The notes under the pieces were generated by a model that was not told where the DNA came from, did no database searches, and saw only the letters and a program-made list of their open reading frames with translations. Source: Candidatus Kapaibacterium sp. (GTDB taxonomy: Bacteria; Bacteroidota; Ignavibacteria; Kapaibacteriales; UBA2268). Taken from it: a DNA stretch of 64,000 bases. The stretch spans positions 1,856,001-1,920,000 of the forward strand of contig OY761611.1 in NCBI GenBank assembly GCA_963664875.1, in the 5' to 3' direction. Positions 11,187-51,972 of the stretch are shown here, one piece after another. Both the position numbers and the translations under genes were made by a program. Numbering within the stretch: the stretch's first letter is position 1; each line of letters begins with the position of its first letter.

Positions 11187-11207
11187 TTACTGCTTTGAAT
11201 TATATAC

Positions 11208-11249
11208 AAAAACGGGTAATGATTTTGCTTAATCGTTACCCGTTTTTTT
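11208..11249. terminator. Bidirectional terminator
   Basis: AAAAACGGGTAATGATT...AATCGTTACCCGTTTTTTT between convergent genes. Confidence 0.8.
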
Positions 11250-11293
11250 GATTATTTATTTTACCCAAAGGATAAAAATCCAAATCACAGTGC

Positions 11294-12541: not shown

Positions 12542-12617
12542 AAATAACCCCTTTGTAAAAAGTATGATTTGAATAATAACTAAATTTACACATTAGACTT
12601 GTAAGAAACAAAGAATT

Positions 12618-18053: not shown

Positions 18054-19511
18054 GTGAAATCTATTGATACTTTATCACTGTTCCCAAAAGCAGAGGTCAG
18101 GAATACTCGCATTAAACCCAAAAGCCAGATTGTACCTGACAAAGAGGCTGTTTTATATTGGGAAAAATGTTTAAACATTATCCAAGATAATGTTTCACCT
18201 CATATTTTTGACACTTGGTTTAAACCTATACAAGCCCTCAAATGGGAAAACAATACATTGACGGTGCTTGCACCAAGTACTTTCTTCTACGAATGGATAG
18301 AAACCAAGTTTAATAATCTTTTGAGAGTTACTATTGACAAAGTTATCGGTCATAATGCTAAACTTAATTATGACATCGTAGTTGATAACAGCTCTCAGGC
18401 TCCTGATAAATTGACTTTAAAAATTCCTGCATTTCAGCATGGCAAAGAGTCTGCGGATTTGATTAAACCTGTAAAAGAGTCTTTCGAATCTAATCTGCAC
18501 CACCGCTATTCGCTTGATAATTATATTACCGGTGATGCTAACCAATTGGCAGCTTCTGCAGCAATGGCTGTAAGCCAAAATCCTGGAGGCACCCGTTTCA
18601 ATCCTTTGGTTGTCTATGGCGATACAGGATTAGGCAAAACTCACCTCGTGCAGGGTATTGGCAATAAAATAATTCAAAGTCGCCCTGATGCTAAGGTACT
18701 TTATACTAATTCAGAAAAATTTACAATGGACTTTATCAGTGCTATCCAAAACAATAGCACAACTGACTTCATAAATCACTACAGAAGCGTTGATGTCCTA
18801 ATTGTAGATGATATTCAGTTCTTTGCCGGCAAAGAGAAAACTCAGGATAATTTCTTCCATACTTTCAATGCTTTGCACCAGGCAGGCAAACAGCTTATTC
18901 TGACTTCAGACGTAGCTCCTAAAGAGCTTAAAGATGTTGACGATAGACTTATTTCAAGATTCCAATGGGGATTGACTGTGGATATTCAGTCGCCTGACCT
19001 TGAAATGAGAATGGCGATTCTTCAGAAAAAATCCTTAGACGAAGGTCTGGAGCTTCCTGTTGAAATCTTAGAATTTATAGCAAGAAACATTACCAGTAGC
19101 ATTCGCGAACTCGAAGGCGTTCTAATCAGCCTAATTGCGAAAGTTACTTTGGACAAACGCCAGCTTAATATGGATGTTGCTAAAGAAGTAGTGTACGGTG
19201 TTGCTAACGTAAGACCAAAAACTCTAACTATAGACGACATCAAAGACGTTGTCTCAGCTTATTATAAATTGCCTGTCGAGATTTTAGAATCAAAATCAAG
19301 AAAGCATGAAATAGCTTTGGCTCGCCAAATGTCTATGTATCTGACCAAGCAGCTTACTCAGATGTCGCTCAAATCAATTGGCCAGAGCTTTGGCGGTAGA
19401 GATCACTCTACAGTGCTTCACTCTTGCCAAACCATTGAAAACTATCTCGTTACAGACAAAACTGTCAAAAACTCTTACGAGATGCTTTTCAGACAGCTAA
19501 AAGGTGAGTAA
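18054..19511 (+). CDS. dnaA: Chromosomal replication initiator DnaA
   Basis: FNPLVVYGDTGLGKTHL, LIVDDIQF, RLISRF, RELEG, FGGRDHSTVLHS. Confidence 0.99.
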   Translation: MKSIDTLSLFPKAEVRNTRIKPKSQIVPDKEAVLYWEKCLNIIQDNVSPHIFDTWFKPIQALKWENNTLTVLAPSTFFYEWIETKFNNLLRVTIDKVIGHNAKLNYDIVVDNSSQAPDKLTLKIPAFQHGKESADLIKPVKESFESNLHHRYSLDNYITGDANQLAASAAMAVSQNPGGTRFNPLVVYGDTGLGKTHLVQGIGNKIIQSRPDAKVLYTNSEKFTMDFISAIQNNSTTDFINHYRSVDVLIVDDIQFFAGKEKTQDNFFHTFNALHQAGKQLILTSDVAPKELKDVDDRLISRFQWGLTVDIQSPDLEMRMAILQKKSLDEGLELPVEILEFIARNITSSIRELEGVLISLIAKVTLDKRQLNMDVAKEVVYGVANVRPKTLTIDDIKDVVSAYYKLPVEILESKSRKHEIALARQMSMYLTKQLTQMSLKSIGQSFGGRDHSTVLHSCQTIENYLVTDKTVKNSYEMLFRQLKGE

Positions 19512-19608
19512 ATCTTATAATTTTTGCTATTGACTTCTTGTTGTCATTTGGCAGCATATTTGATTTTTTAACTTAAATAGCAAAATAAAGCTCTTTTCAA
19601 TCTCAAAC

Positions 19609-19625
19609 ATGACATAATATGTCAT
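19609..19625. promoter_or_regulatory. Palindromic operator-like site upstream of rmuC
   Basis: ATGACAT-AAT-ATGTCAT with perfect 7-bp arms. Confidence 0.35.
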
Positions 19626-19676
19626 AATCAAAAGTATATTTGTATATTCTTAACAACCATCAGATATGGAGCGAAT

Positions 19677-21062
19677 ATGGAAATATACTCAAGCTTAGTA
19701 ATCATTGTATTGATTGTAGTGCAAATCCTACTGCTTCTTTTTAAAAAGCAGCAAGCCGGATTTGACACTACTTCTTTCAATGAGCGCCTAATCAGATTTG
19801 AAGCAGAATTAGCTTCTATCAAAGAAAATGTAGCTTCGTCTGCAGCAACAGGCAGACAGGAAATTGCCGAAAACAACAAAATTATACTTGAAACTCTTCT
19901 CGCTAACCTAAAACGTGCTGATGATTCTATGCGTTCAGGTTTTGACACCTTTTCTGCAAGAATTTCTGATTTTAGTGCCTCTCTCAATACAAACTTTATG
20001 ACTTTTCGCGAGATTATTGAAAACAGTAACTTCAATAGCCGCAATGAAATAAACTCTTCTTTCAAAACTTTTGAAGAAAAATTTTCTTCGTCCACTGCCA
20101 AATCATTAAAAGAAATTGCCGAAGTATTGCAATCAAGCATTGCCCTACTCAGCACTGAAAATGCAGGAAAGCTCGAACAAATGAGAATTGTAGTAGAAGA
20201 AAAGCTACAATCTACATTAGAAAGGAGACTCGGCGAATCTTTCAGACTTGTGAGCGACAGGCTGGAAAAAGTACAGCAGGGCTTAGGCGAAATGCAAAAT
20301 CTTGCAACCGGAGTTGGCGATTTAAAAAAAGTACTCTCTAATGTCAAAAACCGAGGAATGATAGGTGAGTATCAATTAGAAAATATTTTGGCACAAATCC
20401 TTTCACCCGAGCAATATGTCAAAAATGCTCACATCAATAATTCAAGCAAAGTTGTTGAGTTTGCTGTCAAACTTCCCGGCAGACTTTCAAATTCAGCGGT
20501 TCTACTTCCAATTGATTCAAAATTCCCTATCGAAAGCTATCAATCTCTTTTAGATGCCTACGACTCTGCAGATACGATCACAATAGAAACCAATAGGAAA
20601 AAGCTTCTTAGCTCTATTAAGAGTTTTGCAAAAGATATCTCAGATAAATATCTCCAACCACCTTTTACTACAGACTTTGCAGTTATGTTTCTTCCTGTGG
20701 AAGGTCTTTATGCTGAAGTATTGCGTAATGCAGGCTTATTCGAACAGCTCCAGACAGAATACAAAATAATTGTAGCTGGCCCAACTACACTTTCAGCATT
20801 GCTAAACAGCCTTTCTATGGGCTTTAAAACTCTTGCTATCGAAAAAAGAAGCTCTGAGGTCTGGGAAGTATTGAGTGGTGTCAAATCCGAATTCAACAAA
20901 TTTGAAGAAATACTCGAAAAAGCAAAGTCTAAGATTTTCCAAGCCGGCGATGAAATTGAAAAATTGGTGGGTACACGCACAAGAGCAATTAGCAGAAAGC
21001 TGAAAGATGTAGAAATAACTGACTACACTTCCGGGTCGGAACACTATCTCAAGGGAGATTAG
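19677..21062 (+). CDS. rmuC: DNA recombination protein RmuC
   Basis: N-terminal TM helix plus coiled coil; RGMIGEYQL, PIDSKFP, TDFAVMFLPVEGLYAE, GPTTL. Confidence 0.95.
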   Translation: MEIYSSLVIIVLIVVQILLLLFKKQQAGFDTTSFNERLIRFEAELASIKENVASSAATGRQEIAENNKIILETLLANLKRADDSMRSGFDTFSARISDFSASLNTNFMTFREIIENSNFNSRNEINSSFKTFEEKFSSSTAKSLKEIAEVLQSSIALLSTENAGKLEQMRIVVEEKLQSTLERRLGESFRLVSDRLEKVQQGLGEMQNLATGVGDLKKVLSNVKNRGMIGEYQLENILAQILSPEQYVKNAHINNSSKVVEFAVKLPGRLSNSAVLLPIDSKFPIESYQSLLDAYDSADTITIETNRKKLLSSIKSFAKDISDKYLQPPFTTDFAVMFLPVEGLYAEVLRNAGLFEQLQTEYKIIVAGPTTLSALLNSLSMGFKTLAIEKRSSEVWEVLSGVKSEFNKFEEILEKAKSKIFQAGDEIEKLVGTRTRAISRKLKDVEITDYTSGSEHYLKGD

Positions 21063-24606: not shown

Positions 24607-27600
24607 ATGAGATTCCCAATTGCAATGAAAGCAGTTATTATTCTAATAATCGCTGCATCATACTCAGGCATGGCGAATATAAACAACGAAGCCGAATTCT
24701 ATACTTTCAAAACAAGAACTGTACAAACAAACAAAGGAGTATTCGGAGCAGCATCAATTAAAATTGAGCGCGCTCCCGAGCAATATTTTGAAAACGCAAT
24801 AATAATTAAAACTATTGAAAATACAGTAGTTAGCAGCAATCAAAAATCATTTTCGGGGACATCCCTAACTCAGGCTATAATTGATTTGAATATCAAATCA
24901 ATAAGGAATCCTATTGCTTCTTCTCTAAAGGCAGAAGACCCATTTGCATTGTCAAACATCTACGAGGTCTATTTTGACTCACCTGTAGATCCTTATGATG
25001 TATGTCGAGAGCTTATGAAAAATCCTGAAATTGAGTATGCTTCTCCTATTTACAAGAGAGAAATACATAAGGCAGTCAGCGATCCTCAGGCAGGTGTCCA
25101 ATATCATCTGAAAGAAATGAATGCTGAAGCCGCATGGGACATCACAACTGGTGATAAAAATGTAGTGATTGCTATTGTTGATTCCGGAGTTCAGACCGAT
25201 CATCCGGATTTAGCTGCTAACATTTGGACTAATCCCGATGAAATTGCAAATGATGGCATAGACAACGATGGAAACGGTAAAATTGATGATATTCATGGAT
25301 GGGATATGGTAGGCAATATTAGTCAGTCTGATATTGCTTACGGCAGATGGGCAGAAGACAACAACCCAAGCCCCGGAGTAACAACTCTCAACCACGGCAC
25401 TCATGTGGCAGGTTGTGCTGCTGCGGTTACTGATAATGCTATCGGTATTGCTTCGCTTGGTTTCAATTGTAGTATTTTGCCGGTAAAATGCTCTTCCGAA
25501 TCATCTTCGAGTGGCATCTATCGAGGTTACGAAGGTATTGCTTATGCTGCTGATTTAGGTGCTGATATAATTAACTGCTCATGGGGTGGCTTAGGTCAGG
25601 CTGCTTATGAACAGGAAATTATAGATGATGCAACATCAAAAGGCTCACTTGTTATTACCTCTGCCGGCAACGAATCATCTTATATTGATTTAAGTCCGAC
25701 TTACCCTGCCAATTACAAAAATGTTCTTACTGTGGGTGCTACTAAAGCCGGTGGGGATGTTACATTCTTCTCAAACTATGGCATTAGAGTTGATGTCTAT
25801 GCAGCTGGTAATGATATTTATTCCACTTTGCCAGGCAGCAAATATGGAAAGGAAAGCGGAACTTCTATGTCATCTCCGATTGTTTCGGGTTTGGCAGGTC
25901 TTATCAAATCACTTCACCCTGATTGGGAAGCTATGCAGGTGGCTGCTCAAATCAGAGCAACTGCAGACTTAGTAAGTAAAGAAAAAAATATGGATAATAA
26001 ATTTTATTGCATTGCAAATGCATATAAAGCCCTATCTGTGAATAATCCTATCAATAATAAGAACGGTGAAACAACACCCGGACTTAAAATCTTTACTTAC
26101 AACCAAGGCAATAACATGGATTTTGTTTTTGATGGATATGCGGAGAAAAATCTAAATATTTACGTCATCAATTATCTGTCTGATGCTACAAATGTTACTG
26201 TTGAGCTCGAACCCTTAGATAACTTTATCAAACTTTCGGAGACTTCATTCAAGTTCAGCGATATAGAATCACTGTATGATGAGAAAATCAGCTTGAAAGC
26301 AACTTTGCTCGATAACTGTCCTTGGTCTGAAGGCTATGCGTATGTGCTGGTCAAATACAAAGCAGATAATTACGAAGATTTTGAGCTTATGAAACTTGAT
26401 ATTAAAACAAATCAAAAAACAACATTTTCAAAGCTATCTACCAAAGGAGATGCTCCTGATTTTACAGATTGGACAGATATTGCAAGTGCAGACGGCTCTA
26501 ATTTCTGGTGCGTAGGAGCCGGCGAGGAAGCATATTACGGCTACCTTCTGAAGTATAACAAAGTAGGTGGTATAAGTGCTTCTTATTTGCAAACTCCGGC
26601 TTACGATATTGAAGTAATTAACTCAAGTACAGCGTTTGTAGCTTCAAACGGAAGATATGATATTTCCAAGGTTTCTAAAACTACTAATGGTGGTACTTCC
26701 TGGACTAATTGCCTGACAGATTCTCTGACTGATTTTATCAATCAAATTCATTTTTATAGTGCTAAAAACGGCATTTTCCTGGGAAACCCCAAAGACGGTA
26801 AGTGGTGCGTGGCATCAACTACTGACGCAGGAGAGACATGGCAAAGATATTCATCGTTTGAAGCACTAAGCGATGAAATAAGCTATCCAAAATCAAATTG
26901 CTTCAATTTCGGAGATATTTATTTTGGAACTTCTGAAGGAAGGTTATTCTTCTCTGAGGACGCTGGAGCAGCGTGGTCTGTAAAAACAGTATTGCCCGGC
27001 AAAGAGATTCATTTTGTGGAATATATAGATAAAAACAGGGGCATTATAATATATTCGAACAAAGGAGATGCTTCTCGTCAGTTTATAGCTAAAACTAACG
27101 ACGGTGGCAATAATTGGACAACTGAAATTAAATCTTTCTCTGGTGATAATAAGATTATAAATACATTCAGGGCTCAAGACGGAGATGAAATATATGTAGT
27201 TAATCACAAGGGTGAAGTATTTTCTTCGAATAACTTATTTGATTCGATGCAGCCAATATTGTCAAAAAGAACTCAACAAGTTGCTGTAAATGGATTGTAT
27301 GCTAAATCAGGCAAGGGTACTCTACTTCAATTTGGAGATTTTATCACAAGCCTTGAGTTCAACTACGACAAGAAAGATGCAAAATCAGATTTGTCAGTTG
27401 TTACTTCCAGAGATTTGAATTTTGGATATGTAGCACCGGGAACTTCATCTTCGCAGCAAGTCATACTACTTGCTTCAGGTAACCAAAACTCTTACATTTC
27501 AACGTCTGAAATAGAAAATGTAGATTGCGAAGACGGAGAGTTTTCTATAGAGTCTAACTTCCCAATAAATATGAATTCAGGAACTTATGCAGCAGGTATA

Positions 27601-27993
27601 ATTAAATTTACTCCTAATAGCAAAGGTTTGAAGACTGCGAGACTAATCATAAATAACAATTCCGACGAGAGTAGGATTGTTGTTAATCTCAAAGGTGCCG
27701 GTGACCCTATTTCTTCAGTGGATAGAGGGGTTGCTCTCAAAAAAGCAATTTCTGTTTTCCCAAATCCTGCTAAAGAAAAAGTTAGCTTCAAATTTGAAAT
27801 TGCTCTTCTATCTGAAACAGCAAATGTTAAAATCAATGACATAAAAGGACAAAATGTCTTGACATTTGACAATCTTCAGCTGAATGATAAGCAAATTACT
27901 GTAGATTGCTCCGAGTTGAATTCAGGAACATATTTTGCTGATTTCGAAATTGGCGGCAAAAAATACTTAACGAAATTTGTTATTTCGAAATAG
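24607..27993 (+). CDS. Secreted S8 subtilase with Asp-box propeller, Ig-like domain and T9SS C-terminal sorting domain
   Basis: Catalytic triad AIVDSG / NHGTHVAG / SGTSMSSP; Asp-boxes KTTNGGTSW, STTDAGETW, SEDAGAAW, KTNDGGNNW; C-terminal SVFPNPA...GTYF...KFVISK. Confidence 0.92.
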   Translation: MRFPIAMKAVIILIIAASYSGMANINNEAEFYTFKTRTVQTNKGVFGAASIKIERAPEQYFENAIIIKTIENTVVSSNQKSFSGTSLTQAIIDLNIKSIRNPIASSLKAEDPFALSNIYEVYFDSPVDPYDVCRELMKNPEIEYASPIYKREIHKAVSDPQAGVQYHLKEMNAEAAWDITTGDKNVVIAIVDSGVQTDHPDLAANIWTNPDEIANDGIDNDGNGKIDDIHGWDMVGNISQSDIAYGRWAEDNNPSPGVTTLNHGTHVAGCAAAVTDNAIGIASLGFNCSILPVKCSSESSSSGIYRGYEGIAYAADLGADIINCSWGGLGQAAYEQEIIDDATSKGSLVITSAGNESSYIDLSPTYPANYKNVLTVGATKAGGDVTFFSNYGIRVDVYAAGNDIYSTLPGSKYGKESGTSMSSPIVSGLAGLIKSLHPDWEAMQVAAQIRATADLVSKEKNMDNKFYCIANAYKALSVNNPINNKNGETTPGLKIFTYNQGNNMDFVFDGYAEKNLNIYVINYLSDATNVTVELEPLDNFIKLSETSFKFSDIESLYDEKISLKATLLDNCPWSEGYAYVLVKYKADNYEDFELMKLDIKTNQKTTFSKLSTKGDAPDFTDWTDIASADGSNFWCVGAGEEAYYGYLLKYNKVGGISASYLQTPAYDIEVINSSTAFVASNGRYDISKVSKTTNGGTSWTNCLTDSLTDFINQIHFYSAKNGIFLGNPKDGKWCVASTTDAGETWQRYSSFEALSDEISYPKSNCFNFGDIYFGTSEGRLFFSEDAGAAWSVKTVLPGKEIHFVEYIDKNRGIIIYSNKGDASRQFIAKTNDGGNNWTTEIKSFSGDNKIINTFRAQDGDEIYVVNHKGEVFSSNNLFDSMQPILSKRTQQVAVNGLYAKSGKGTLLQFGDFITSLEFNYDKKDAKSDLSVVTSRDLNFGYVAPGTSSSQQVILLASGNQNSYISTSEIENVDCEDGEFSIESNFPINMNSGTYAAGIIKFTPNSKGLKTARLIINNNSDESRIVVNLKGAGDPISSVDRGVALKKAISVFPNPAKEKVSFKFEIALLSETANVKINDIKGQNVLTFDNLQLNDKQITVDCSELNSGTYFADFEIGGKKYLTKFVISK

Positions 27994-41168: not shown

Positions 41169-41345
41169 CTATTCGATATTATTGAGACATATTATGTCAG
41201 TATTCGAGTAATCTTCTGCATCAAGAACTAAATCCTCATTTTTGTACATCATAGTAACTTTTTCAATAGCTTCTTCACTACTATCAGCTTCGATTTCTAC
41301 TACCCGAGATAGTACTTCTCTTACTACGATTTCATAAGTTTTCAT
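41169..41345 (-). CDS. DpnD/PcfM-like small protein
   Basis: MKTYEIVVREVLSRVVEIEADSSEEAIEKV..MY..EDLVLDAED pattern; overlaps the end of the DpnI gene by 14 nt. Confidence 0.75.
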   Translation of the reverse strand: MKTYEIVVREVLSRVVEIEADSSEEAIEKVTMMYKNEDLVLDAEDYSNTDIICLNNIE

Positions 41346-42117
41346 TTTGAACCTTTTTGTAATTCCCATTACCTAAAAACTCAATTATACCTTGATCTCT
41401 TAAATATTGTAATTGCTGTCTTATTTTATCTTTGACGAAGTTATTATTTGGGTATTTCTTTTTAAGTTCTGTTTCAAATTTATACATCTCTTGAAGATTG
41501 AAAATATCTTTGGGAATTTGGTCTAAGCACTTCATTATATCAAGAAGCCAGCCACGCCTCTCGTGTTTGGTTTTTCTTAAAAATAAAGTATTTTGCCAAT
41601 GATTTATAACTCTTTCTTTTAATGTAGAAATTCCATTCTGAATGAGATATATTTTACCGTGATTTGGTATCTGAGCTAAGCTAATATTACACCCTATCCA
41701 ACCTGCTCGACGAGCAGTTGACGGTAATGGATTCCTTTTTTCTATCATGTTTTCAGTCATGAAGTGCTTCGGGACTAACATAAAGTTGGTAACTTTACTG
41801 TTCCGTTTGTCATAAGTCAGAAAGAAAAAGTTTGGGTTGTTATCAGCTTGAATCCTATCAATCATAGTGGAAAATGCACCATCTGCAATTTTGGAACCGA
41901 AACTAATTGCATTTTTACTTTTTAGTTCAAATTCTTCTCTACAATTATGACACGCAAAATCTGCAACTGGGCTATTATTGGGCATTGCGTTTAAGCTTTC
42001 CGCTCCACAAACTGGACAATAACTATTTCTTTTAACCCAGTCTTCAGTCAATACTCTTGCTTTTTGTGAGTTGCTCTTATAATTCTCTGCTACTGATAAA
42101 TCAAAATATATGTTCAT
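41332..42117 (-). CDS. DpnI/Dam-replacing family methyl-directed (Gm6ATC) restriction endonuclease
   Basis: SQKARVLTEDW, CPVC..CHNC Zn site, EFELKSK, ARRAGWIGCNI, winged helix KIRQQLQYLRD. Confidence 0.92.
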   Translation of the reverse strand: MNIYFDLSVAENYKSNSQKARVLTEDWVKRNSYCPVCGAESLNAMPNNSPVADFACHNCREEFELKSKNAISFGSKIADGAFSTMIDRIQADNNPNFFFLTYDKRNSKVTNFMLVPKHFMTENMIEKRNPLPSTARRAGWIGCNISLAQIPNHGKIYLIQNGISTLKERVINHWQNTLFLRKTKHERRGWLLDIMKCLDQIPKDIFNLQEMYKFETELKKKYPNNNFVKDKIRQQLQYLRDQGIIEFLGNGNYKKVQNENL

Positions 42118-42287
42118 ATTACACTATTCTGTTAAGCTAATTTTTCAATATACAATTTTATCTTTAAGATAGACATAGATATTCATGCTGTTGAAAATTT
42201 TTAAAAGTAGCAGAACTACTTTTTGATTTGACCCAACCTAAAATTATCTGAAGAAACTGCTCACTTTCCAATTACAAATCAAATTTT

Positions 42288-42321
42288 AAAAAAAACGCAC
42301 CCCAAATCTGAGATGCGTCTT
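42288..42321 (-). terminator. Terminator of VIT-vWA copy 1 (homologues at 45276-45309 and 48249-48280)
   Basis: GACGCATCTC-agattt-GGGGTGCGTT plus a T-tract on the minus strand. Confidence 0.8.
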
Positions 42322-42333
42322 CTTTTTCGCCAT

Positions 42334-45159
42334 TTATTTAGTTTTGCCGACTACTCCTTTAAGCCTAATGAAGTATTTGATATACTTATTCAAAGTTGTT
42401 TTTCCAAGATTGAGTTCGGAGTTAAAACTGATATAATGCATACAAAACTCATCTTTCGGAATTTCTACTTTACCATCAGCATTTTTTCTGAATGGATTAG
42501 TTTGGTTCATCACATTATCAATAGCGCCTTTGGTAAGCCGTGTTCCTTTCTCATCCCAGATCTCGAAGTAGAGTGTATAATTTTCTCCCTCTGGAACAAG
42601 TTTCATATTATCTGTTTTTTCTTTCCAAAGATTACCATGTTGGTATGTTTGGTAATTTTTGCCACCTAATTCAAATTTTCCAGAGGGAATAATAGTAAAT
42701 TTTGAGTTATATATACTATTTGGCTTCAATTCTCCCATTGATGTTCCTATAGCTTCAATCATTTCTTTTAGAAAATCAGAACTACTATATTCAGACTTAA
42801 TATCTTGGGCCTCCAACTCTATCGCAAAAATATTACTATTGTTGTCAGTCATAATTGAAACAGAAATATCTTTAAACAAAAATGCCTTTTGTTTTATATA
42901 CTTTGCAATTACATTATCAATATTGTCTCTGCGTTTCAAAACGAAATTGTCATATCGATAATTAACTTGGAATAAAGTAAATTCAAATATATCTCCATCT
43001 TGGAATGACTTGTCTAATTGACCATTTTTTATAGGAAATAAATGGAATCTTTGATTACTATTAATCTTATAGCAAATAGTATCTATATATTTTACGGAAT
43101 CTCTTATCCACTTTAAGTCTGACTCGTATGGCCAGTTCTCTGTGCTATATGGTCGTCTGCTAGGAGTCAACGCACTTAAGCTATACTCAACGTCTTCTCT
43201 ACCAAGCTCATACACTACATCCTCTGAAACATTATCTTTACTTACAAAGTCTTCTATATCGACTTCTTCAATGTCCTTATTTGCATTGGCTTCTTCCGGT
43301 ATTTCTGCATCTACAGCTACAAAGGAAGTGTGGTTTGTCATGAGGTGATATTTCAAACCAAGATTGATGATTTCCTCTTTGTTTCGGTCTCTGTTGTTAT
43401 AAGAATTTTCGCCGGGAAAGTCCTGGATAGTTTGCAATTTTCTTCTCGCCCAGAGGTACTTGAGTACTTTAGTGGTGTCAAGTTCTGCAAAGCGTTCCAC
43501 TTGGAAATATGTTTTCATTTCCTGCTTGCCGTTTAAGCCTGAAACACGAACAATTCCGGATGGATGCCCTTTGTATTTACCGCTAATAATAATTGGTCTT
43601 TGAGCAAATACGTCAGGAATTTTCTCAGGTACTAAGTCATAAGCATCAAAGCCTTCAAACTCGATTTTTATATCTGTCATTATAGGCGAATCGATATATT
43701 CTTTAAACTTTTTAGCTTCGCTTAGAGCTTCGTCCATGTCAGTGATAATAAATGGTTCACTCATAGAAATATTTGCAAGCCCTTCTATGATGTAACGATT
43801 GACAGAAGTACCGATACCAAACGGGAATATATTGCCTTTATCTAATTTTTGCGAAACGTATTCAATCACCTCAAGATCCGCTGTAATGAAGCCGTCAGTT
43901 ATCAAAATCACGGAACGTGAATAGCCGTCTGTTTTTGGCAAGTCCATAGCTCTTTTGAGAGCAGGAAGGAGCTGTGTTCCGCCACCACCTCTTTCATTAG
44001 AAAGGAAATCAAAGCCTTCTTGGAGGTTATCTAATGTTGCAGGCATAGACTTATCAGATAAAACTTCATTGCTACCTGCGAACTTGATTACATTAAACAT
44101 ATCAGTTTCGTTTGTGCCTTCAAGAAGATTACCGTATAGCTCGATTGCTGTCTGAATTGGCTTCCCGTTCATAGAACCGGAAACATCCACAACAAACACA
44201 TATTCTCTCGGCAAAATCTCTTCTGCCGGCACACGGCGAGGTGCTTGAAGCATAAGTAGGAAGAAGTTTTCTTCTTCGCCTTCGTGAATCATTAGTCCGG
44301 TCTCTACTTTTTGACTTTCCATCTCGTAATTGAGAATAAAGTCTCTGTTCAGCTCAGTTTCGTTATTTAAACGAATAGTAGTTTTGCCGTCTTTTTTCTC
44401 AGTTGCAACATTGTGTGATTTGCACGATACTTTTGCAATATCGAAAATAGAAGATATACTAACATTTATATCAAAGTCGATTTTCTTGTTCGCATACATA
44501 TTCTCATATAACTTATATTCACCTCGTTCTCCGACTTCCTCAAACACATTCTGATATCTTTTACCAATTTTTGTTGGCAGCACAAAACTATAGACATAAT
44601 CTTTGTATTGGATTATCTCAGAGTATTCCACAACAACCTGAATAGTATCACCGGGATAAATATTTGCAACTTCAGTAGTAAATATATTTGGTTTTACCTG
44701 AGAGAGGAGTGAGGCACGCTTGCCTTCAGACTTCGCTTTTTCAAAAGTCTCCTTTGCTTCCTGCTTTTCCTGAATCTGAGCATAAATGATTCTATCTTTT
44801 ATTTTCATCATCATGCCATGCACCGCAGCCTGAGTTGAACCCGGGAAGCGGTAAATAGCATCAATCTTTTCTTTGGAAGTATTGACAAAAGTCTGAGTCA
44901 GCTTAACACTTGCAATGTTTCCAACTATGTCAACATCTGCCTTATAAGCTTTGAGAGGAAATTCTATTGTTTCCCGGTCGATTGTGTAGTACATAATAGG
45001 CATAGATACATCTTCATCATTGTATCCATAATATCCGCCACCATAATAACTTGGAGCTGGTGGGCTACTCACAGCCTCATTTTCTCTTATCTCGAAAAAT
45101 AACACTGCCGCTGTCAAAACAAAAAACGCAATCAAAAAATTCTTCATTAACTTCTCCAT
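42334..45159 (-). CDS. Secreted VIT + vWA domain protein, copy 1
   Basis: Signal peptide; VIT region (VKLTQTFVN..YRFP..ASLLSQ..NIF..VANI); vWA MIDAS DVSGS, GGGGT, LITDG, FGIG. Confidence 0.92.
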   Translation of the reverse strand: MEKLMKNFLIAFFVLTAAVLFFEIRENEAVSSPPAPSYYGGGYYGYNDEDVSMPIMYYTIDRETIEFPLKAYKADVDIVGNIASVKLTQTFVNTSKEKIDAIYRFPGSTQAAVHGMMMKIKDRIIYAQIQEKQEAKETFEKAKSEGKRASLLSQVKPNIFTTEVANIYPGDTIQVVVEYSEIIQYKDYVYSFVLPTKIGKRYQNVFEEVGERGEYKLYENMYANKKIDFDINVSISSIFDIAKVSCKSHNVATEKKDGKTTIRLNNETELNRDFILNYEMESQKVETGLMIHEGEEENFFLLMLQAPRRVPAEEILPREYVFVVDVSGSMNGKPIQTAIELYGNLLEGTNETDMFNVIKFAGSNEVLSDKSMPATLDNLQEGFDFLSNERGGGGTQLLPALKRAMDLPKTDGYSRSVILITDGFITADLEVIEYVSQKLDKGNIFPFGIGTSVNRYIIEGLANISMSEPFIITDMDEALSEAKKFKEYIDSPIMTDIKIEFEGFDAYDLVPEKIPDVFAQRPIIISGKYKGHPSGIVRVSGLNGKQEMKTYFQVERFAELDTTKVLKYLWARRKLQTIQDFPGENSYNNRDRNKEEIINLGLKYHLMTNHTSFVAVDAEIPEEANANKDIEEVDIEDFVSKDNVSEDVVYELGREDVEYSLSALTPSRRPYSTENWPYESDLKWIRDSVKYIDTICYKINSNQRFHLFPIKNGQLDKSFQDGDIFEFTLFQVNYRYDNFVLKRRDNIDNVIAKYIKQKAFLFKDISVSIMTDNNSNIFAIELEAQDIKSEYSSSDFLKEMIEAIGTSMGELKPNSIYNSKFTIIPSGKFELGGKNYQTYQHGNLWKEKTDNMKLVPEGENYTLYFEIWDEKGTRLTKGAIDNVMNQTNPFRKNADGKVEIPKDEFCMHYISFNSELNLGKTTLNKYIKYFIRLKGVVGKTK

Positions 45160-45224
45160 ACTTACCTCTCTCGAGATATTTTATAATAAGTTTTCAAAAT
45201 CAAGTGTTGGATTGAGGCTTGTGT

Positions 45225-45254
45225 TTTATACAACTAAGGACATCCATCTTTCAA
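45225..45254 (-). promoter_or_regulatory. Putative sigma70 promoter of VIT-vWA copy 1 (homologue at 48197-48226)
   Basis: TTGAAA-N18-TATAAA conserved in both duplicated units; GAGAGG SD before the ATG. Confidence 0.45.
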
Positions 45255-45257
45255 TTT

Positions 45258-48230
45258 AATTACAAATCAAATTTTAAAAAAAACGCACCCCAAATTTGAG
45301 ATGCGTCTTCTTTTTCGCCATTTATTTAGTTTTGCCGACTACTCCTTTAAGCCTAATGAAGTATTTGATATACTTATTCAAAGTTGTTTTTCCAAGATTG
45401 AGTTCGGAGTTAAAACTGATATAATGCATACAAAACTCATCTTTCGGAATTTCTACTTTACCATCAGCATTTTTGATAAACGGATTAGTTTGGTTCATCA
45501 CATTATCAATAGCCCCTTTGGCAAGCTGCCTTCCTTCCTCATCCCATATCTCGAAGTAGAGTGTGTAATTTTCTCTCTCTGGAATAAGTTTCATATTATC
45601 TGTGTTTTCTTTCCAAAGATTACCATGTTGGTATGTTTGGTAATTTTTGCCAAAAAATTGAAACTTGCCGGATGGCTCTATTTTGAAGGTTAATGGATAA
45701 ATTGTATTAGGTTTTGTATCCTTTAATTCTTTCGCTATTGTTCTAATTAGATCATCTACAAGATTAGACAAATTCTTAGCATTAATAAATTTATCTTTTG
45801 CGATTTTGATTGCATAAAACTGATTGTTTTCGTCAATAACTATTTCCATATTGTAAATGGATTCTACGAAAGTGTACTTCCCAAATTCGTCTGTTAAGCG
45901 CTTAACGATAGAGTTTCTATCCTTCAAGATTTCAGTTTCTATGTCGTAATTTGGCTGTCTAATTAGTTTTCTTGATGTATCATTCATAGTATTAGGTTTG
46001 TCCGACACACTGTTTCTAACTATGAAAAGTGAATCAGGATAAGCTCCTTCATTATACATTTTACTTTCAAAATCAACATTATAAGCACACCCCAACACTT
46101 CCCTTAGATTGACTCCCGGAGCTGCTGCACTACTCATTACATCCATACAAGCAAACTCTTGAAGTTTCTCTCTTCCAAGCTCATACACTACATCCTCTGA
46201 ACTATTACCTGTACTTACAAAGTCTTCTATATCGACTTCATCAATGTCCTTATTTGCATTGGCTTCTTCCGGTATTTCTGCATCTACAGCCACAAAAGAA
46301 GTGTGGTTTGTCATGAGGTGATATTTCAAACCAAGATTGATGATTTCCTCTTTGTTTCGGTCTCTGTTGTTATAAGAATTTTCGCCGGGAAAGTCCTGGA
46401 TAGTTTGCAATTTTCTTCTCGCCCAGAGGTACTTGAGTACTTTAGTGGTGTCAAGTTCTGCAAAGCGTTCCACTTGAAAATATGTTTTCATTTCCTGCTT
46501 GCCGTTTGAGCCTGAAACACGAACAATTCCGGATGGATGCCCCTTGTATTTACCGCTAATAATAATTGGTCTTTGAGCAAATACGTCAGGAATTTTCTCA
46601 GGTACTAAGTCATAAGCTTCAAAGTTTTCAAACTCTATCTTAATATCTGTCATCAACGGTGAATCGATATATTCTTTAAACTTTTTGGCTTCACTCAGAG
46701 CTTCGTCCATGTCCGTGATTATAAATGGTTCACTCATAGAAATATTTGCAAGACCTTCTATGATGTAACGATTGACAGAAGTCCCAATGCCAAACGGAAA
46801 TATATTGCCTTTATCTAAGTTTTGCGAAACGTATTCAATCACCTCAAGATCCGCTGTGATAAAGCCGTCAGTTATCAAAATCACGGAACGTGAATAGCCG
46901 TCTGTTTTTGGCAAGTCCATAGCTCTTTTGAGAGCAGGAAGGAGCTCTGTTCCGCCACCACCTCTTTCATTAGAAAGGAAATCAAAGCCTTCTTGGAGGT
47001 TATCTTTTGTTGCAGGCATAGACTTATCAGCTAATACTTCATTGCTACCTGCGAATTTGATTACATTGAACATATCAGTTTCGTTTGTACCTTCAAGAAG
47101 ATTGCCGTATAGCTCGATTGCTGTCTGAATTGGCTTCCCGTTCATAGAACCGGAAACATCCACAACAAACACATATTCTCTTGGCAAAATCTCTTCGGCA
47201 GGCACACGGCGAGGCGCTTGAAGCATAAGAAGGAAGAAGTTTTCTTCTTCGCCTTCGTGAATAATTAGTCCGGTCTCTACTTTTTGACTTTCCATCTCGT
47301 AATTGAGAATAAAGTCTCTGTCCAGCTCAGTTTCTTCATTTAATCTAATAATAGTTTTGCCGTCTTTTTTCTCTGTTATAACATTATGTGATTTGCACGA
47401 TGCTTTTGCAATATCGAAGATAGAAGAAATGCTGACATTTATATCAAAGTCGATTTTCTTGTTCGCATACATATTCTCATATAACTTATATTCACCTCTT
47501 TCTCCGACTTCCTCAAACACATTCTGATATCTTTTACCAATTTTTGTTGGCAGCACAAAGCTATAAACATAATCTTTGTATTGGATTATCTCAGAGTATT
47601 CCACAACAACCTGAATAGTATCACCGGGATAGATATTTGCTACTTCAGTAGTAAAGATATTTGGTTTTACCTGAGAGAGGAGTGAGGCACGCTTGCCTTC
47701 AGACTTCGCTTTTTCAAAAGTCTCTTTTGCCTCCTGCTTTTCCTGAATCTGAGCATATATGATTCTATCTTTTATTTTCATCATCATGCCATGCACAGCA
47801 GCCTGAGTTGAGCCCGGGAAGCGGTAAATAGCATCAATCTTTTCTTTGGAAGTATTGACAAAAGTCTGAGTCAGCTTAACACTTGCAATGTTTCCAACTA
47901 TGTCAACATCTGCCTTATAAGCTTTGAGAGGAAATTCTATTGTTTCCCTGTCGATTGTGTAATACATAATAGGCATAGATACATCTTCATCATTGTATCC
48001 ATAATATCCACCACCATAATAACTTGGTGCTGGGGGGCTACTCACAGCCTCATTTTCTCTTATCTCGAAAAATAACACTGCCGCTGTAAAAACAAAAAAT
48101 GCAATCAAAAAATTCTTCATTAACTTCTCCATACTTACCTCTCTCGAGATATTTTATAATATGTTTTAGATTCAAGTGTGGGAGTGAGGCTTGTGTTTTA
48201 TACAACTAAGCACATCTATCTTTCAATTTA
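45258..48230. repeat. Tandem duplication unit 2
   Basis: Direct repeat of 42270-45257 except for the internal segment 45652-46167. Confidence 0.95.
45322..48132 (-). CDS. Secreted VIT + vWA domain protein, copy 2
   Basis: Same architecture as copy 1, MIDAS intact. Confidence 0.92.
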   Translation of the reverse strand: MEKLMKNFLIAFFVFTAAVLFFEIRENEAVSSPPAPSYYGGGYYGYNDEDVSMPIMYYTIDRETIEFPLKAYKADVDIVGNIASVKLTQTFVNTSKEKIDAIYRFPGSTQAAVHGMMMKIKDRIIYAQIQEKQEAKETFEKAKSEGKRASLLSQVKPNIFTTEVANIYPGDTIQVVVEYSEIIQYKDYVYSFVLPTKIGKRYQNVFEEVGERGEYKLYENMYANKKIDFDINVSISSIFDIAKASCKSHNVITEKKDGKTIIRLNEETELDRDFILNYEMESQKVETGLIIHEGEEENFFLLMLQAPRRVPAEEILPREYVFVVDVSGSMNGKPIQTAIELYGNLLEGTNETDMFNVIKFAGSNEVLADKSMPATKDNLQEGFDFLSNERGGGGTELLPALKRAMDLPKTDGYSRSVILITDGFITADLEVIEYVSQNLDKGNIFPFGIGTSVNRYIIEGLANISMSEPFIITDMDEALSEAKKFKEYIDSPLMTDIKIEFENFEAYDLVPEKIPDVFAQRPIIISGKYKGHPSGIVRVSGSNGKQEMKTYFQVERFAELDTTKVLKYLWARRKLQTIQDFPGENSYNNRDRNKEEIINLGLKYHLMTNHTSFVAVDAEIPEEANANKDIDEVDIEDFVSTGNSSEDVVYELGREKLQEFACMDVMSSAAAPGVNLREVLGCAYNVDFESKMYNEGAYPDSLFIVRNSVSDKPNTMNDTSRKLIRQPNYDIETEILKDRNSIVKRLTDEFGKYTFVESIYNMEIVIDENNQFYAIKIAKDKFINAKNLSNLVDDLIRTIAKELKDTKPNTIYPLTFKIEPSGKFQFFGKNYQTYQHGNLWKENTDNMKLIPERENYTLYFEIWDEEGRQLAKGAIDNVMNQTNPFIKNADGKVEIPKDEFCMHYISFNSELNLGKTTLNKYIKYFIRLKGVVGKTK

Positions 48231-48294
48231 ATGACAAATTATACAAAGAAAACGCACCCCATGCTATGAGAATGCGTCTTCTCGGTTTACTTAT

Positions 48295-51228
48295 CTATTC
48301 ATTGCCGGCTTCTGACATAATGCCTTTTAATTTGATATAGTAATTTTGGTATTGCTTTAGCTCCTCATCTCCCAGCTTAAAGCTGTTTTGAAGTTGAGCG
48401 TAGTGCATGCAGAATTTATCCTGCGGTATCGAGATATTCCCTTGTAAGTTTCTGACAAATGGATTTGTCTCGTTCATCAAATTATCAATCGTACCTTTGG
48501 CAACAAGCTTTTTGTCTTTGTCCCATATCTCAAAGTATAGAGTGTAAGTTCTTCCGCCTTTTATCATAGTCATATCGTCTATGCTTTCACGCCAGAAGAG
48601 ATTCTGTTCAAATGCAGTTTCGTAATCTATACCTTCTAAATTAAATTTACCCGAAGGATTGAGTTTGATAGAAGCACCGTAAATAGTATTGGCTTGAGGA
48701 TCATCCAATTCATCAGCTATAGTTTCAATTATTTCTTTTATGAATGCCTGCATATCCTTCACTTCTGTAAAACTACTTACAGGTAATTCAATCAGGCACA
48801 AATCATCATTGTTATCAACAATAAATTCAATATTATACTTGTTCCAAGTAAAGGAAGGCAATCCAAGGTGTTTAATAAACACTTTTTCTAATGGCTTCAA
48901 ATCATCCATAACAGATTCAATATTTTGATATTCCAAATCGACTATGTCTAATTGTACTGTATCGCCAACATTAAATGACTCGTCTAACTTACCGTCTTTT
49001 ATAGGATAACTTTGAGCAACTGCTCCGGAGCTTCCAAAATCAATTTTATCAAGGAAATTGCCTTTTGAATCCCCGACTACTATATTCCCGTATCCGCTAC
49101 TTATATTACTTTTCATAGGAAAGTATTTTGAACCACTAATTCCCATTCCGCCGGTAAACTTATTGGTCATATCTAAACCATCAACTAAGATTTGTGTTTC
49201 CGAATCTCTTGAACCTGAGCCGGAGTTAGGTCCTAGAATCGCTACTATGTTTTCACTCACAACTTTAGACATTTTTTCTGCTGTTATCACATTTGGAGCA
49301 GCTGTTTTAGGAAGATGTGCTTTCTTGTTGTTATAATCCGGTTCTTCATTCTGATTTTCTTCTTTTTCGATAACTTCAGTGTCCACCGCCACAAACGAAG
49401 TGTGGTTTGTCATAAGATGATATTTCAAACCAAGATTTATGATTTCCTCTTTGTTTCGGTCTTGTCTGACATAATGATATACGCCCGGGAAGTCCTGAAT
49501 AGTTTGCAGTTTTCTTCTCGCCCAGAGGTATTTCAATGTTTGTGAAGTGTCGAGTTCTGCAAAGCGTTCCACTTGGAAATATGTTTTCATTTCCTGCTTG
49601 CCGTTTAAGCCCGAAACACGAACTATTCCGGATGGATGCCCTTTGTATTTACCACTAATAATAATCGGTCTTTGAGCAAATACATCAGGAATTTTCTCAG
49701 GAACTAAGTCATAAGCATCAAAGTTTTCAAACTCAATTTTTATATCAGTCATTACAGGTGAGTCGATATATTCTTTAAACTTTTTGGCTTCACTTAGCGC
49801 TTCGTCCATGTCCGTGATTATAAATGGTTCACTCATAGATAGGTTTGAAAGCCCTTCTATTAAGTACCTGTTTACAGAGTTTCCGATACCAAACGGAAAT
49901 ATATTTCCTTTGTCTAAATTTTTAGAAACGTACTCTATAACATCTATATCAGCAGTTATAAAGCCGTCAGTTATCAAAATCACGGAGCGGGAATAGCCGT
50001 CTGTTTTTGGCAAATCCATAGCCCTTTTGAGAGCAGGAAGAAGCTCTGTTCCGCCACCACCTCTTTCATTTGAAAGGAAGTCGAAACCTTTTTGGAGGTT
50101 ATCTTTTGTTGCAGGCATTGATTTTTCAGCTAATACTTCATTACTGCCTGCAAATTTGATTACATTGAACATATCAGTTTCGTTTGTGCCTTCAAGAAGA
50201 TTGCCATATAGCTCAATTGCTGTCTGAATTGGCTTACCGTTCATAGATCCTGAAACATCCACAACAAACACATATTCTCTTGGTAAGATCTCTTCTGCCG
50301 GCACACGGCGAGGCGCTTGAAGCATAAGAAGGAAGAAGTTTTCTTCTTCGCCTTCGTGAATCATTAGTCCGGTCTCTACTTTTTGACTTTCCATCTCGTA
50401 ATTGAGAATAAAGTCTCTATCGAGCGGTGTAGGTGTGTCCATTTTGATAATAGTTTTGCCGTCTTTTTCATCTTTTTTTATTTGATGAGTTTTAGAATAA
50501 ACATTGGCTATATCAAAAATCGAAGAGATATTGACATTGATATCGAAGTCAATGTATTTGCCTGCATAAATATTTGCATACACATCATATTCACCTCTTG
50601 TGCCGGTCTTTTCATACATACCCTGATATCGTTCGCCTATTTTGGTAGGTAAAACAAAGCTATAAGTATAGTCTTTGTAGGTAATAATTTCAGAATAATC
50701 TACTATAACCTGAATAGTATCGCCGGGGTAGATATTAGCAACTTCAGTAGTGAATACATTAGGTCTTTCTTGCGAGAGTAATGATGCACGCTTGCCTTCG
50801 GACTTTGCTATTTCGTAAGTCTGTCTTGCTTCCTGTTTCTCCTGAATCTGAGCATAGATGACTCTGTCTTTTATTTTCATAGTCATGCCATGCACAGCAG
50901 CTTGAGTTGAGCCCGGGAAGCGATAAGTAGCATCAATCTTTTCTTTCGAAGTATTGACAAAAGTCTGAGTCAGCTTAACGCTCGCGATATTGCCAACAAT
51001 GTCAACATCTGCATTATAGGCTTTGAGAGGAAATTCGCGAGGCTCGTTATCCAAAATGTAATACATAATCGGAATTGAAAACTCATCGCCGTAATAATTT
51101 GCATAAGGGTTATATGCATAAGCTTTTTCGGGTTGTCCTTTAAAAAACATTGCAGCACATAAAACTAAAATCAAAGCAAAAATATTCTTCATAATCCTGT
51201 CTCCATAATTGGCTTTCTTATAAGACAT
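48295..51228 (-). CDS. Secreted VIT + vWA domain protein, copy 3 (more diverged)
   Basis: vWA core nearly identical to copies 1/2, termini diverged; likely start ATG 51192 (MKNIFAL). Confidence 0.92.
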   Translation of the reverse strand: MSYKKANYGDRIMKNIFALILVLCAAMFFKGQPEKAYAYNPYANYYGDEFSIPIMYYILDNEPREFPLKAYNADVDIVGNIASVKLTQTFVNTSKEKIDATYRFPGSTQAAVHGMTMKIKDRVIYAQIQEKQEARQTYEIAKSEGKRASLLSQERPNVFTTEVANIYPGDTIQVIVDYSEIITYKDYTYSFVLPTKIGERYQGMYEKTGTRGEYDVYANIYAGKYIDFDINVNISSIFDIANVYSKTHQIKKDEKDGKTIIKMDTPTPLDRDFILNYEMESQKVETGLMIHEGEEENFFLLMLQAPRRVPAEEILPREYVFVVDVSGSMNGKPIQTAIELYGNLLEGTNETDMFNVIKFAGSNEVLAEKSMPATKDNLQKGFDFLSNERGGGGTELLPALKRAMDLPKTDGYSRSVILITDGFITADIDVIEYVSKNLDKGNIFPFGIGNSVNRYLIEGLSNLSMSEPFIITDMDEALSEAKKFKEYIDSPVMTDIKIEFENFDAYDLVPEKIPDVFAQRPIIISGKYKGHPSGIVRVSGLNGKQEMKTYFQVERFAELDTSQTLKYLWARRKLQTIQDFPGVYHYVRQDRNKEEIINLGLKYHLMTNHTSFVAVDTEVIEKEENQNEEPDYNNKKAHLPKTAAPNVITAEKMSKVVSENIVAILGPNSGSGSRDSETQILVDGLDMTNKFTGGMGISGSKYFPMKSNISSGYGNIVVGDSKGNFLDKIDFGSSGAVAQSYPIKDGKLDESFNVGDTVQLDIVDLEYQNIESVMDDLKPLEKVFIKHLGLPSFTWNKYNIEFIVDNNDDLCLIELPVSSFTEVKDMQAFIKEIIETIADELDDPQANTIYGASIKLNPSGKFNLEGIDYETAFEQNLFWRESIDDMTMIKGGRTYTLYFEIWDKDKKLVAKGTIDNLMNETNPFVRNLQGNISIPQDKFCMHYAQLQNSFKLGDEELKQYQNYYIKLKGIMSEAGNE

Positions 51229-51257: not shown

Positions 51258-51644
51258 TTAAATATTTACAACGTATATCCAATTTATAATAACAAGTAAG
51301 ATTATTGCTATTGTAATCTTTAAAGGAAATGGTTTTATAAGGGCAGGTAACAAAGTTTCTTTATTTCGAATTATGTCAGTAATAATCCAAAGGGTGGATG
51401 CAATAATAAGAAAGTTAGTTACTAAGCTAAGGGGATTTATGCATAAAGCCTCTTCAAATTGCATTTTTAGCAACAGTAATGTGGCTTCTGTAGTTCCACA
51501 AGCAGGACATTTAAATCCATAAATTGTCCTAAAAGGGCATTTGAACCAGATGTTACTATGCGATAGGTATAGTGGTATCAAATAATAACTAGACAGCACT
51601 ATACCTACGTAAATAATATATAATATTCTTCTTCTAAATGGCAT
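51258..51644 (-). CDS. DUF2752 membrane protein
   Basis: CPFRTIYGFKCPACGTT...A...NP motif. Confidence 0.88.
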   Translation of the reverse strand: MPFRRRILYIIYVGIVLSSYYLIPLYLSHSNIWFKCPFRTIYGFKCPACGTTEATLLLLKMQFEEALCINPLSLVTNFLIIASTLWIITDIIRNKETLLPALIKPFPLKITIAIILLVIINWIYVVNI

Positions 51645-51972
51645 TTATCATAATCTTCTGGTAATTGACATCTTTTGTCTTACCCATTATGATAAATAAA
51701 TCAATCAGTGCCCAAACTCCTATGCCACCACAAGTAAGCAATTTAGCAACACCCAAGCCAGACTGCCCAAGCATAAATCGATCCACTCCTAATCCTCCAA
51801 GAAATATCGAAACAATCAGCATAGTCGTTGGACTTTTCAACTCTATAGATTGGATAAAGCCAAATTTGTTGTCTTCCAACTTTTCTAACTGATTTCTGAT
51901 TAACATAATTTTCTCTGAAGGAAATTTGTCTTGATTGGCAGACATATACATGTCAATTTTTACTTGTTCCAT
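51634..51972 (-). CDS. TM2-domain membrane protein
   Basis: SIFLGGLGVDRFMLGQSGLGVAKLLTCGGIGVWALID. Confidence 0.92.
   Translation of the reverse strand: MEQVKIDMYMSANQDKFPSEKIMLIRNQLEKLEDNKFGFIQSIELKSPTTMLIVSIFLGGLGVDRFMLGQSGLGVAKLLTCGGIGVWALIDLFIIMGKTKDVNYQKIMINAI

Follow-up and report, generated by a model that had tools for sequence, protein, structure and literature searches.

Segmental gene conversion probably left an ancient internal block between homogenised flanks in two tandem VIT-vWA genes of Candidatus Kapaibacterium

Three tandem genes on the minus strand of a Candidatus Kapaibacterium chromosome encode VIT-vWA proteins, two of which are near-identical except for one internal block. 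We analyzed these genes, W3, W2 and W1 in transcription order (42334-51228), within a stretch of 64,000 nucleotides (nt) from contig OY761611.1 of assembly GCA_963664875.1 (positions 1,856,001 to 1,920,000 of the forward strand; hereafter, the window, to which the positions of W1-W3 refer). W1 and W2 form a mosaic with exact breakpoints, silent-site divergence differs sharply between the block and its flanks, and the trees of the VIT-vWA body and of the C-terminal region conflict in three genomes. Segmental gene conversion among old tandem paralogues probably accounts for this pattern, with the block as the one segment left unconverted. The first-pass annotation of the window had pointed out the block and offered two origins for it, an in-frame cassette exchange between conserved flanks or a homogenisation of the flanks, the variable domain being preserved by selection.

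Results

A sharply bounded block in two near-identical genes

The proteins encoded by W1, W2 and W3 share one layout, with a hydrophobic N-terminus resembling a signal peptide, a VIT domain (amino acids 69-179), a vWA domain (amino acids 321-476), an acidic linker and ~300 C-terminal amino acids (hereafter, the C-terminal module). All three are VIT-vWA proteins by Pfam, with PF08487 and PF13768/PF00092 above their gathering scores; VIT scored 112.6-115.9 bits (cut-off 26.5) and VWA_3 58.3-60.7 bits (cut-off 27). The vWA pattern DxSxS..T..D (D325, S327, S329, T395 and D422) is invariant in the three copies, and we take it to be the metal ion-dependent adhesion site (MIDAS) motif. The C-terminal types are referred to as a, b and c, as in the three copies of locus L004 (see below). 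The genes and the segments compared are as follows.

42334-45159 (-): W1 (P0001, 941 amino acids), from open reading frame (ORF) and translation; Pfam VIT 1.4e-32, VWA_3 1.2e-15
45322-48132 (-): W2 (P0002, 936 amino acids), tandem paralogue with the architecture of W1, from ORF, translation and Pfam
48295-51228 (-): W3 (P0003, 977 amino acids), third and more diverged tandem paralogue, from ORF, translation and alignment
42664-43194 (-): W1 divergent block (amino acids 656-832, 177 amino acids), N-terminal subdomain of the C-terminal module, type a, from breakpoint scan and silent-site divergence
45652-46167 (-): W2 divergent block (172 amino acids), very diverged, from alignment and tree
42337-42663 (-): W1 tail domain (amino acids 833-941), beta-rich, 93% identical to the W2 tail, from alignment and structure model
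45325-45651 (-): W2 tail domain, from alignment
45160-45257 (-): non-coding spacer upstream of W1, within its repeat unit; homologue of 48133-48230 ahead of W2 (8/98 differences)

The aligned repeat units were scanned for two breakpoints by maximum chi-square, which placed the block edges at W1 positions 43195 and 42664 (chi-square 1059.9, with 24.5 as the largest value in 30 column permutations), so that the coordinates first given for the two blocks proved exact. Within the block 311 of 534 DNA columns differ between W1 and W2, versus 107 of 2458 outside it. At the protein level, the by-eye count of about 27 differing residues in ~764 outside the block was also exact (27/764, with 19/655 on the N-terminal and 8/109 on the C-terminal side). 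In 60-nt sliding windows the identity was 85-100% over most of the coding flanks and 20-52% in the block, and the last two windows ahead of the 5' breakpoint had 81% and 68%. The DNA alignment has 26 of 27 nt identical at the 5' edge, followed by a collapse, and 44 identical nt at the 3' edge, starting at GGCAAAAATTACC. Alignment, sliding window and breakpoint scan thus agree on the abrupt stop and resumption of identity described in the first-pass annotation, and the divergence is not gradual. The non-coding flanks are conserved as well, as had been remarked: besides the upstream part listed above, only 1 of the 64 nt downstream of the stop codon differs, including the terminator hairpin, and the homology stops at 42270.

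The W1 and W2 blocks have 41 identical residues. Their second halves are clearly homologous (z 10.2, 0 of 300 shuffles reaching the score) and their first halves barely alignable (z 3.0, 1 of 300 shuffles), which bears out the division of the block described earlier and points to diverged versions of one homologous subdomain, not to foreign or unrelated inserts. The first half of the W2 block was predicted with low confidence and is without the FP[IV]K[ND]GxLD motif present in the other copies. The guanine-cytosine (GC) content of the block is 0.30-0.33 and that of the adjoining tail 0.34.

An EDVxYxL motif occurs as a tandem pair across the 5' breakpoint of W1 (43168-43222, amino acids 647-664), the first common to W2 and the second like type a of L004/P0008; the pair may be the footprint of an out-of-register junction.

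Silent-site divergence across the block edges

Synonymous (dS) and nonsynonymous (dN) divergence between W1 and W2 was estimated by the Nei-Gojobori method. In the left flank dS was 0.156 (57.5 synonymous differences in 408.5 sites) and dN 0.017, in the tail dS was 0.114 and dN 0.033, and in the block dS was about 2.5, which is saturated, with a dN of 0.93. Silent-site divergence therefore jumps more than 15-fold over a few bases, indicating a recombinational mosaic and not accelerated protein evolution.

The flanks themselves are unevenly diverged. The youngest tract shared by W1 and W2 lies at the end of the repeat unit.

42270-42486 (-): last 51 codons of W1 and its terminator; 1/217 differing columns versus W2 45258-45474

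Just upstream of this tract 15 of 178 columns differ (Fisher p 4e-5, for a split chosen post hoc), and, with a split likewise chosen post hoc, W1 and W2 differ at 8/408 columns in 43238-43645 versus 22/243 in 43646-43888. The W3 body is itself a mosaic, in which stretches 93-100% identical to W1/W2 stand beside stretches of 65-80%; compared with W1, it has low-dS patches of 0.33-0.47, and elsewhere dS is 0.8 or more, up to saturated. The uneven flanks and the low-dS patches of W3 are consistent with several conversion events of different ages.

The longest DNA stretches invariant in W1-W3 include 44290-44347 (57 nt) and 43504-43535 (31 nt), with two 33-nt runs between them. The 57-nt stretch, in the segment LMIHEGEEENFFLLMLQAP, immediately precedes the vWA metal-site region. 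The 57-nt and 31-nt stretches are candidate start sites of conversion.

Relatives of the array

One scan of 185,579 species genomes yielded four related loci (L001-L004) in metagenome-assembled genomes labelled Chlorobiota or Candidatus Kapaibacterium, one of them only 'uncultured bacterium'. L004 has three tandem copies (a, b and c), L003 has two, one of them truncated, and L001 and L002 have one copy each in the DNA stretches examined. P0006 and another strain with three copies (P0007-P0009, on a 711-kb contig) came from protein searches, which gave a comparison set of 14 sequences from about 6 genomes. No gene flanking the L001-L004 arrays matches the window between 30 and 64 kb; the flanking genes are not syntenic, and gene position therefore cannot settle orthology.

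The VIT-vWA body is very widespread, with at least 4571 of the 7999 candidates scored reaching E<=1e-50 (39-47% identity over ~60% of the query), and these bodies bear varied C-termini, including TonB_C, FKBP, OmpA, PEP-CTERM and a type IX secretion system (T9SS) sorting domain. The C-terminal module is restricted to a few Kapaibacterium/Chlorobiota-like genomes. An exhaustive profile search of 1.84 billion representatives with the C-terminal alignment returned only its own cluster and one 37-amino-acid fragment, a word-based search with W1 residues 630-941 recovered only P0001 and P0002, and a search with the alignment restricted to longer proteins, which covered up to 8000 candidates, gave at least six proteins, all already known. 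No further allele between the W1/W2 flanks was detected in public protein sets, which hold about a dozen family members.

The best match of the W1 block outside this genome is L004a/P0008 (38.5% identity over 179 amino acids, E 2e-41). This block type has a full-length counterpart in another genome and therefore predates the split of the lineages. Between close strains the blocks are nearly unchanged (L001/L002 99%, L004a/P0008 100%, L004b/P0007 99% and L004c/P0009 97% identity), as are the bodies, at 96-100% in these four pairs. For the whole C-terminal module of L001 and L002, dN was 0.017 and dS 0.135, indicating purifying selection in this one orthologous pair.

P0006 (969 amino acids, protein only, from a 10-kb contig) is a second mosaic. 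Its body and tail are 91% and 73% identical to those of L003b, and its block core is 72% identical to that of W3 and 43% to that of L003b. The 3' switch occurs directly after PSGKF, the same place as the 3' breakpoint of W1/W2.

Three side observations concern the other relatives. In the L001/L002 pair (9869-12733 and 9905-12739), the dS of the body (0.35) is higher than that of the C-terminal module (0.135), the reverse of what is expected for the more conserved region, which suggests conversion of one of the two bodies by a paralogue located beyond the DNA stretches examined. The truncated paralogue of L003 (7628-9745; P0011, 702 amino acids) has a body near-identical to that of its neighbour (dS 0.18), and its C-terminal module is replaced by ~85 residues, which have a short motif in common with the W2 block and a hydrophobic end resembling a membrane anchor. 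The type-b proteins P0007 and P0010 of close strains are 99% identical in the block core and 100% in the tail, and 68% in the linker and the first part of the block, where P0007 has a linker like the one in its type-a neighbour P0008; conversion tracts therefore end at different places in close strains.

Conflicting histories of the gene segments

The body tree (561 columns, 14 rows) groups the copies by genome, with W1, W2 and W3 together, the copies of L004 and P0007-P0009 together, and L003a with L003b (support 98-100%). In the tail tree (110 columns, 13 rows) W3 clusters with type-c copies from four further sources (96/95); the tails of W1 and W2 are sisters of each other and go with types a and b, outside the a+b pair. 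The block tree likewise places W3 with type c and W1 near type a, and gives W2 a very long end branch (2.46 substitutions per site). Kinship by type across genomes is thus seen for type c, in both tail and block, and for the W1 block with type a.

Approximately unbiased (AU) tests agreed with this conflict. A type-c clade was rejected for the body (p 2e-36); for the tail, W1+W2+W3 (p 0.018) and the L004-group copies as one clade (p 0.002) were rejected; and for the block, W1+W2+W3 was rejected (p 0.0006). The dS values show the same contrast elsewhere, at 0.27 in the body and 2.08 in the C-terminus for L004a versus L004b, and 0.18 in the body and saturated in the C-terminus for L003a versus L003b. 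In general, body dS was 0.16-0.27 within genomes and 1.9-2.3 between them. The bodies are similar within genomes and the C-terminal types are older; in at least three genomes the bodies of neighbouring copies therefore became uniform only once the lineages had separated, a classical case of segmental concerted evolution. New in this locus is that tail and terminator are common to W1 and W2 as well, so that the segment without conversion forms an island inside the gene.

Segmental gene conversion and its alternatives

W1, W2 and W3 would be old tandem paralogues, each encoding a secreted VIT-vWA protein with a lineage-restricted module in which a tail domain follows a variable subdomain. The direct repeats would undergo homologous recombination with each other, by gene conversion or unequal exchange, that repeatedly overwrites the ~2-kb VIT-vWA body, and in this genome the tail, terminator and upstream spacer of W1 and W2 would have been overwritten too, hence their young look. 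The block of 516-531 nt would not have been overwritten and would retain the ancient divergence of two paralogue types, and its sharp edges would mark where conversion tracts ended. The most likely reasons for their stopping there are that the identity of the blocks (~42%) is too low to carry a heteroduplex across, and that copies losing their distinct subdomain would lose their distinct partner or ligand specificity. The mechanism (conversion of the RecA type), which copy served as donor, the part played by selection and what the block does biochemically are inferred.

Several points weigh against segmental conversion. The two flanks are alike in dS, which one duplication with a later exchange of the middle would produce as well, and P0006 has a block of similar extent inside a foreign body-and-tail context. 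In the AU tests, whose clades were named after the trees had been seen, a W1+W2 clade was not rejected for the block (p 0.17). The W2 block is tied to type b by two short motifs only and has a very long branch. Along transcription the types run c-b?-a here, a-b-c in L004 and b-c in L003; no cyclic permutation links these orders, and such differences between genomes are not accounted for by flank conversion alone. The sample is small (14 sequences, ~6 genomes), and no conversion event was directly observed.

Much of this would also be expected from a true cassette exchange, in which a recent whole-gene tandem duplication was followed by in-frame replacement of the middle block through a double crossover with a diverged donor, either a paralogue elsewhere in the genome or DNA of a related organism. 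Similar flank dS (0.156 and 0.114), the sister position of the W1 and W2 tails outside the a+b pair, the orphan long branch of the W2 block, the variable type order, the doubled EDVxYxL motif at the W1 5' breakpoint and the combination in P0006 of a W3-like block with an L003b-like body and tail, switching after PSGKF, all fit such an exchange. With about a dozen sequences, the flank dS, the type order, the doubled motif and P0006 are equally compatible with repeated flank conversion whose tracts end at a domain boundary. However, no donor was found: the window has no further copy of the block, protein searches returned no donor, and tblastn with the W2 block gave no relative among 72,556 plasmid and 50,697 phage records. 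Moreover, the GC content of the block is near that of the tail, with no sign of a foreign island, and the L004 and L003 bodies were homogenised without their tails, so flank conversion does operate in this family. We consider cassette exchange a serious alternative that is nonetheless unlikely; if the donor was a paralogue of the same array, cassette exchange and flank conversion are one process. The recombinational origin put forward in the first-pass annotation is supported by the dS contrast, and of its two proposals the homogenisation of the flanks is favoured over the import of a cassette; the block is not an unrelated swapped-in one. We find it more doubtful still that the subdomain between the EDVxYxL linker motif and PSGKF is an exchangeable specificity cassette, moved between paralogues and even lineages by recombination at its edges. 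If it were, W1/W2 and P0006 would have arisen independently of each other, and the scrambled type order would be a footprint of a recombination-based re-sorting of partner specificities on a conserved VIT-vWA scaffold.

The sharp in-frame edges, the recurrence of the 3' boundary in P0006 and the location of the block within a probable surface or envelope binding protein might also suggest a programmed diversity system with the block as its variable region, such as a diversity-generating retroelement, a shufflon or switching between an expression site and silent cassettes. Such a system is very improbable here. Of the window ORFs, 47 were scanned (38 with Pfam, a further 9 with NCBIfam alone), and none is a reverse transcriptase, invertase, integrase or transposase, in keeping with the initial remark that no reverse transcriptase or recombinase is nearby; the window also has no template-like second copy of either block, so a diversity-generating retroelement was rejected for this stretch. 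The 15 inverted-repeat pairs found are short (14-24 nt) and imperfect (71-93% complementary), and none is at the block boundaries; with no recombinase among the ORFs, an invertase shufflon or site-specific switch was rejected as well. Promoterless partial copies resembling silent cassettes of the pilE/pilS type were not found in the 64 kb, all three genes are full-length with their own terminators, and block identity in close strain pairs is 97-100%. Two further explanations have next to no standing. Divergence in place, by very fast evolution of the block after a recent duplication under positive selection or relaxed constraint, would match the high block dN and the low-confidence first half of the W2 block with its lost motif, but it is refuted by the dS contrast, with saturated synonymous sites in the block against 0.11-0.16 in the flanks; the change is also abrupt within a few bases, and the W1 block groups with type a of another genome. 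An assembly artefact, from a collapsed repeat or a stitch of several strains, is conceivable in that 3-kb tandem repeats at 96% identity are hard for short reads; against it, the 107 differences are spread through the flanks, the reading frames are all intact, the proteins are recorded on a 3.83-Mb contig, and L004, L003 and the 711-kb contig of P0007-P0009 independently have homogenised bodies with distinct C-termini.

Structure of the C-terminal module

AlphaFold models were built for the C-terminal regions of W1 and W2, each from a 9-row alignment (mean predicted local distance difference test score, pLDDT, 69 and 66). In these models the linker is disordered and the tail is beta-rich (pLDDT 83-91). 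The second half of the block is a helix-strand-strand-helix-strand unit in W1 and W2 alike, and the first half has three strands in W1 and is mostly of low confidence in W2. Foldseek comparison of the whole C-terminal models with the PDB gave weak matches to the FKBP fold (target-normalised TM-scores 0.26-0.62 over ~100-137 columns at 5-14% identity), and an hhalign comparison of the module with the FKBP-bearing relative P0048 was not significant (probability 0.11). Searches with the C-terminal module returned nothing from Pfam at E up to 0.1, nothing from a PDB sequence profile search at E up to 1, and no usable match from an ESM Atlas feature search. We tentatively suggest that the proteins combine a secreted, metal-dependent binding scaffold (VIT-vWA) with a C-terminal module whose variable subdomain may set partner or site specificity.

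Genomic surroundings of the array

Each of the three genes is followed by a strong terminator-like hairpin, and in each case 0 of 200 shuffles folded equally well.

42288-42325 (-): terminator-like hairpin and U tract after W1, z -4.9
45276-45313 (-): terminator-like hairpin after W2, z -4.5
48246-48283 (-): terminator-like hairpin after W3, z -4.1

A promoter scan was uninformative (44 sites versus 38.9 expected). The surroundings are those of an ordinary chromosome, with menF/menD, a DAHP synthase gene, a TonB-dependent receptor and, at 18 kb, DnaA. Directly 3' of W1 lies a DpnI-like methyl-directed restriction endonuclease (41332-42117, -; Pfam DpnI 1.2e-80 and DpnI_C 4.8e-34). Directly 5' of W3 and on the same strand are genes for two small membrane proteins (DUF2752, 128 amino acids, and TM2, 112 amino acids; 51258-51972, -), which may share a transcript or a function with the array. 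DnaA is followed by RmuC (18054-21062, +; RmuC at 19677-21062, ~21 kb away), and the pair may place the window near the replication origin; cumulative GC skew over the window falls overall (-0.11 to -1.07, with some reversals), with no clear origin signal at 2-kb resolution. A subtilase of 1128 amino acids with BNR-like repeats (24607-27993, +) carries a C-terminal T9SS sorting domain (Por_Secre_tail 7.3e-13), and the organism therefore has type IX secretion; W1-W3 are without this sorting domain.

Discussion

In the literature, the top 8-12 of 21 to 30,104 matches for VIT-vWA proteins with sortase, Kapaibacteria or gene conversion included no work dealing with this family or with VIT-vWA proteins of Kapaibacterium. 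The closest known parallels are the Helicobacter pylori gene pairs homA/homB and babA/babB, which consist of three segments, one or both outer ones evolving in concert by intragenomic conversion, and a divergent middle one that defines the alleles; the converted segment clusters by strain (PMC2795765). W1 and W2 resemble these pairs in being within-genome paralogues with near-identical segments, a divergent middle and disagreeing segment trees. They differ in that W1-W3 are tandem and not dispersed, are VIT-vWA proteins and not Hop/Hom porin-like adhesins, and come from an uncultured environmental lineage, in which the block is stable between close strains. For babA/babB the same account cites Pride and Blaser 2002. 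By this analogy, W1 and W2 appear to represent a known kind of evolution, of the babA/babB and homA/homB type, in a new protein family.

Long-lasting concerted evolution of prokaryotic paralogues has been described for 26 genes, mostly of core pathways, by Wang and Chen 2018 (PMC6053082). As in the cases given there, paralogues within a genome are here closer than orthologues across genomes, recurrently in several lineages; in W1 and W2 only part of the gene is homogenised. In Neisseria meningitidis, the 3' domain of tpsA is exchanged with promoterless downstream cassettes (PMC3848433). Common ground with W1 and W2 is a possible in-frame exchange of a putative C-terminal specificity region between conserved flanks, and the difference is that the 64-kb window has no downstream promoterless cassettes.

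Bacterial VIT-vWA proteins with interchangeable C-termini (the TIGR03788, TonB_C, FKBP, OmpA, PEP-CTERM and T9SS forms) have the same VIT and vWA body as W1-W3. Unlike TIGR03788 and the other tailed forms, the C-terminal module here is without a Pfam family or a PDB sequence match. Membership in TIGR03788, the 'marine proteobacterial sortase target' family, was rejected (395.6 bits versus a cut-off of 551.65, with a match to amino acids 73-631 only), and by eye the C-termini of W1-W3 have no LPXTG-like motif and no hydrophobic tail, so no sortase sorting signal was recognised. Leptospira ligA and ligB, which encode Big domains, share an identical N-terminal region of several hundred residues and have divergent C-terminal parts, commonly read as partial duplication or conversion; their divergence is terminal, versus internal here.

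No new mechanism is revealed. The locus is a clean, base-resolved case of partial concerted evolution in a barely studied Bacteroidota/Chlorobiota lineage, and it carries a caution for annotation and phylogeny, because the segments of these proteins differ in history and whole-protein trees of the family would mislead. The conserved VIT-vWA body is kept uniform across the tandem copies, and one small subdomain retains ancient differences. This block is likely the specificity determinant of an uncharacterised, lineage-restricted module, which makes the C-terminal module a sensible target for structural and binding studies.

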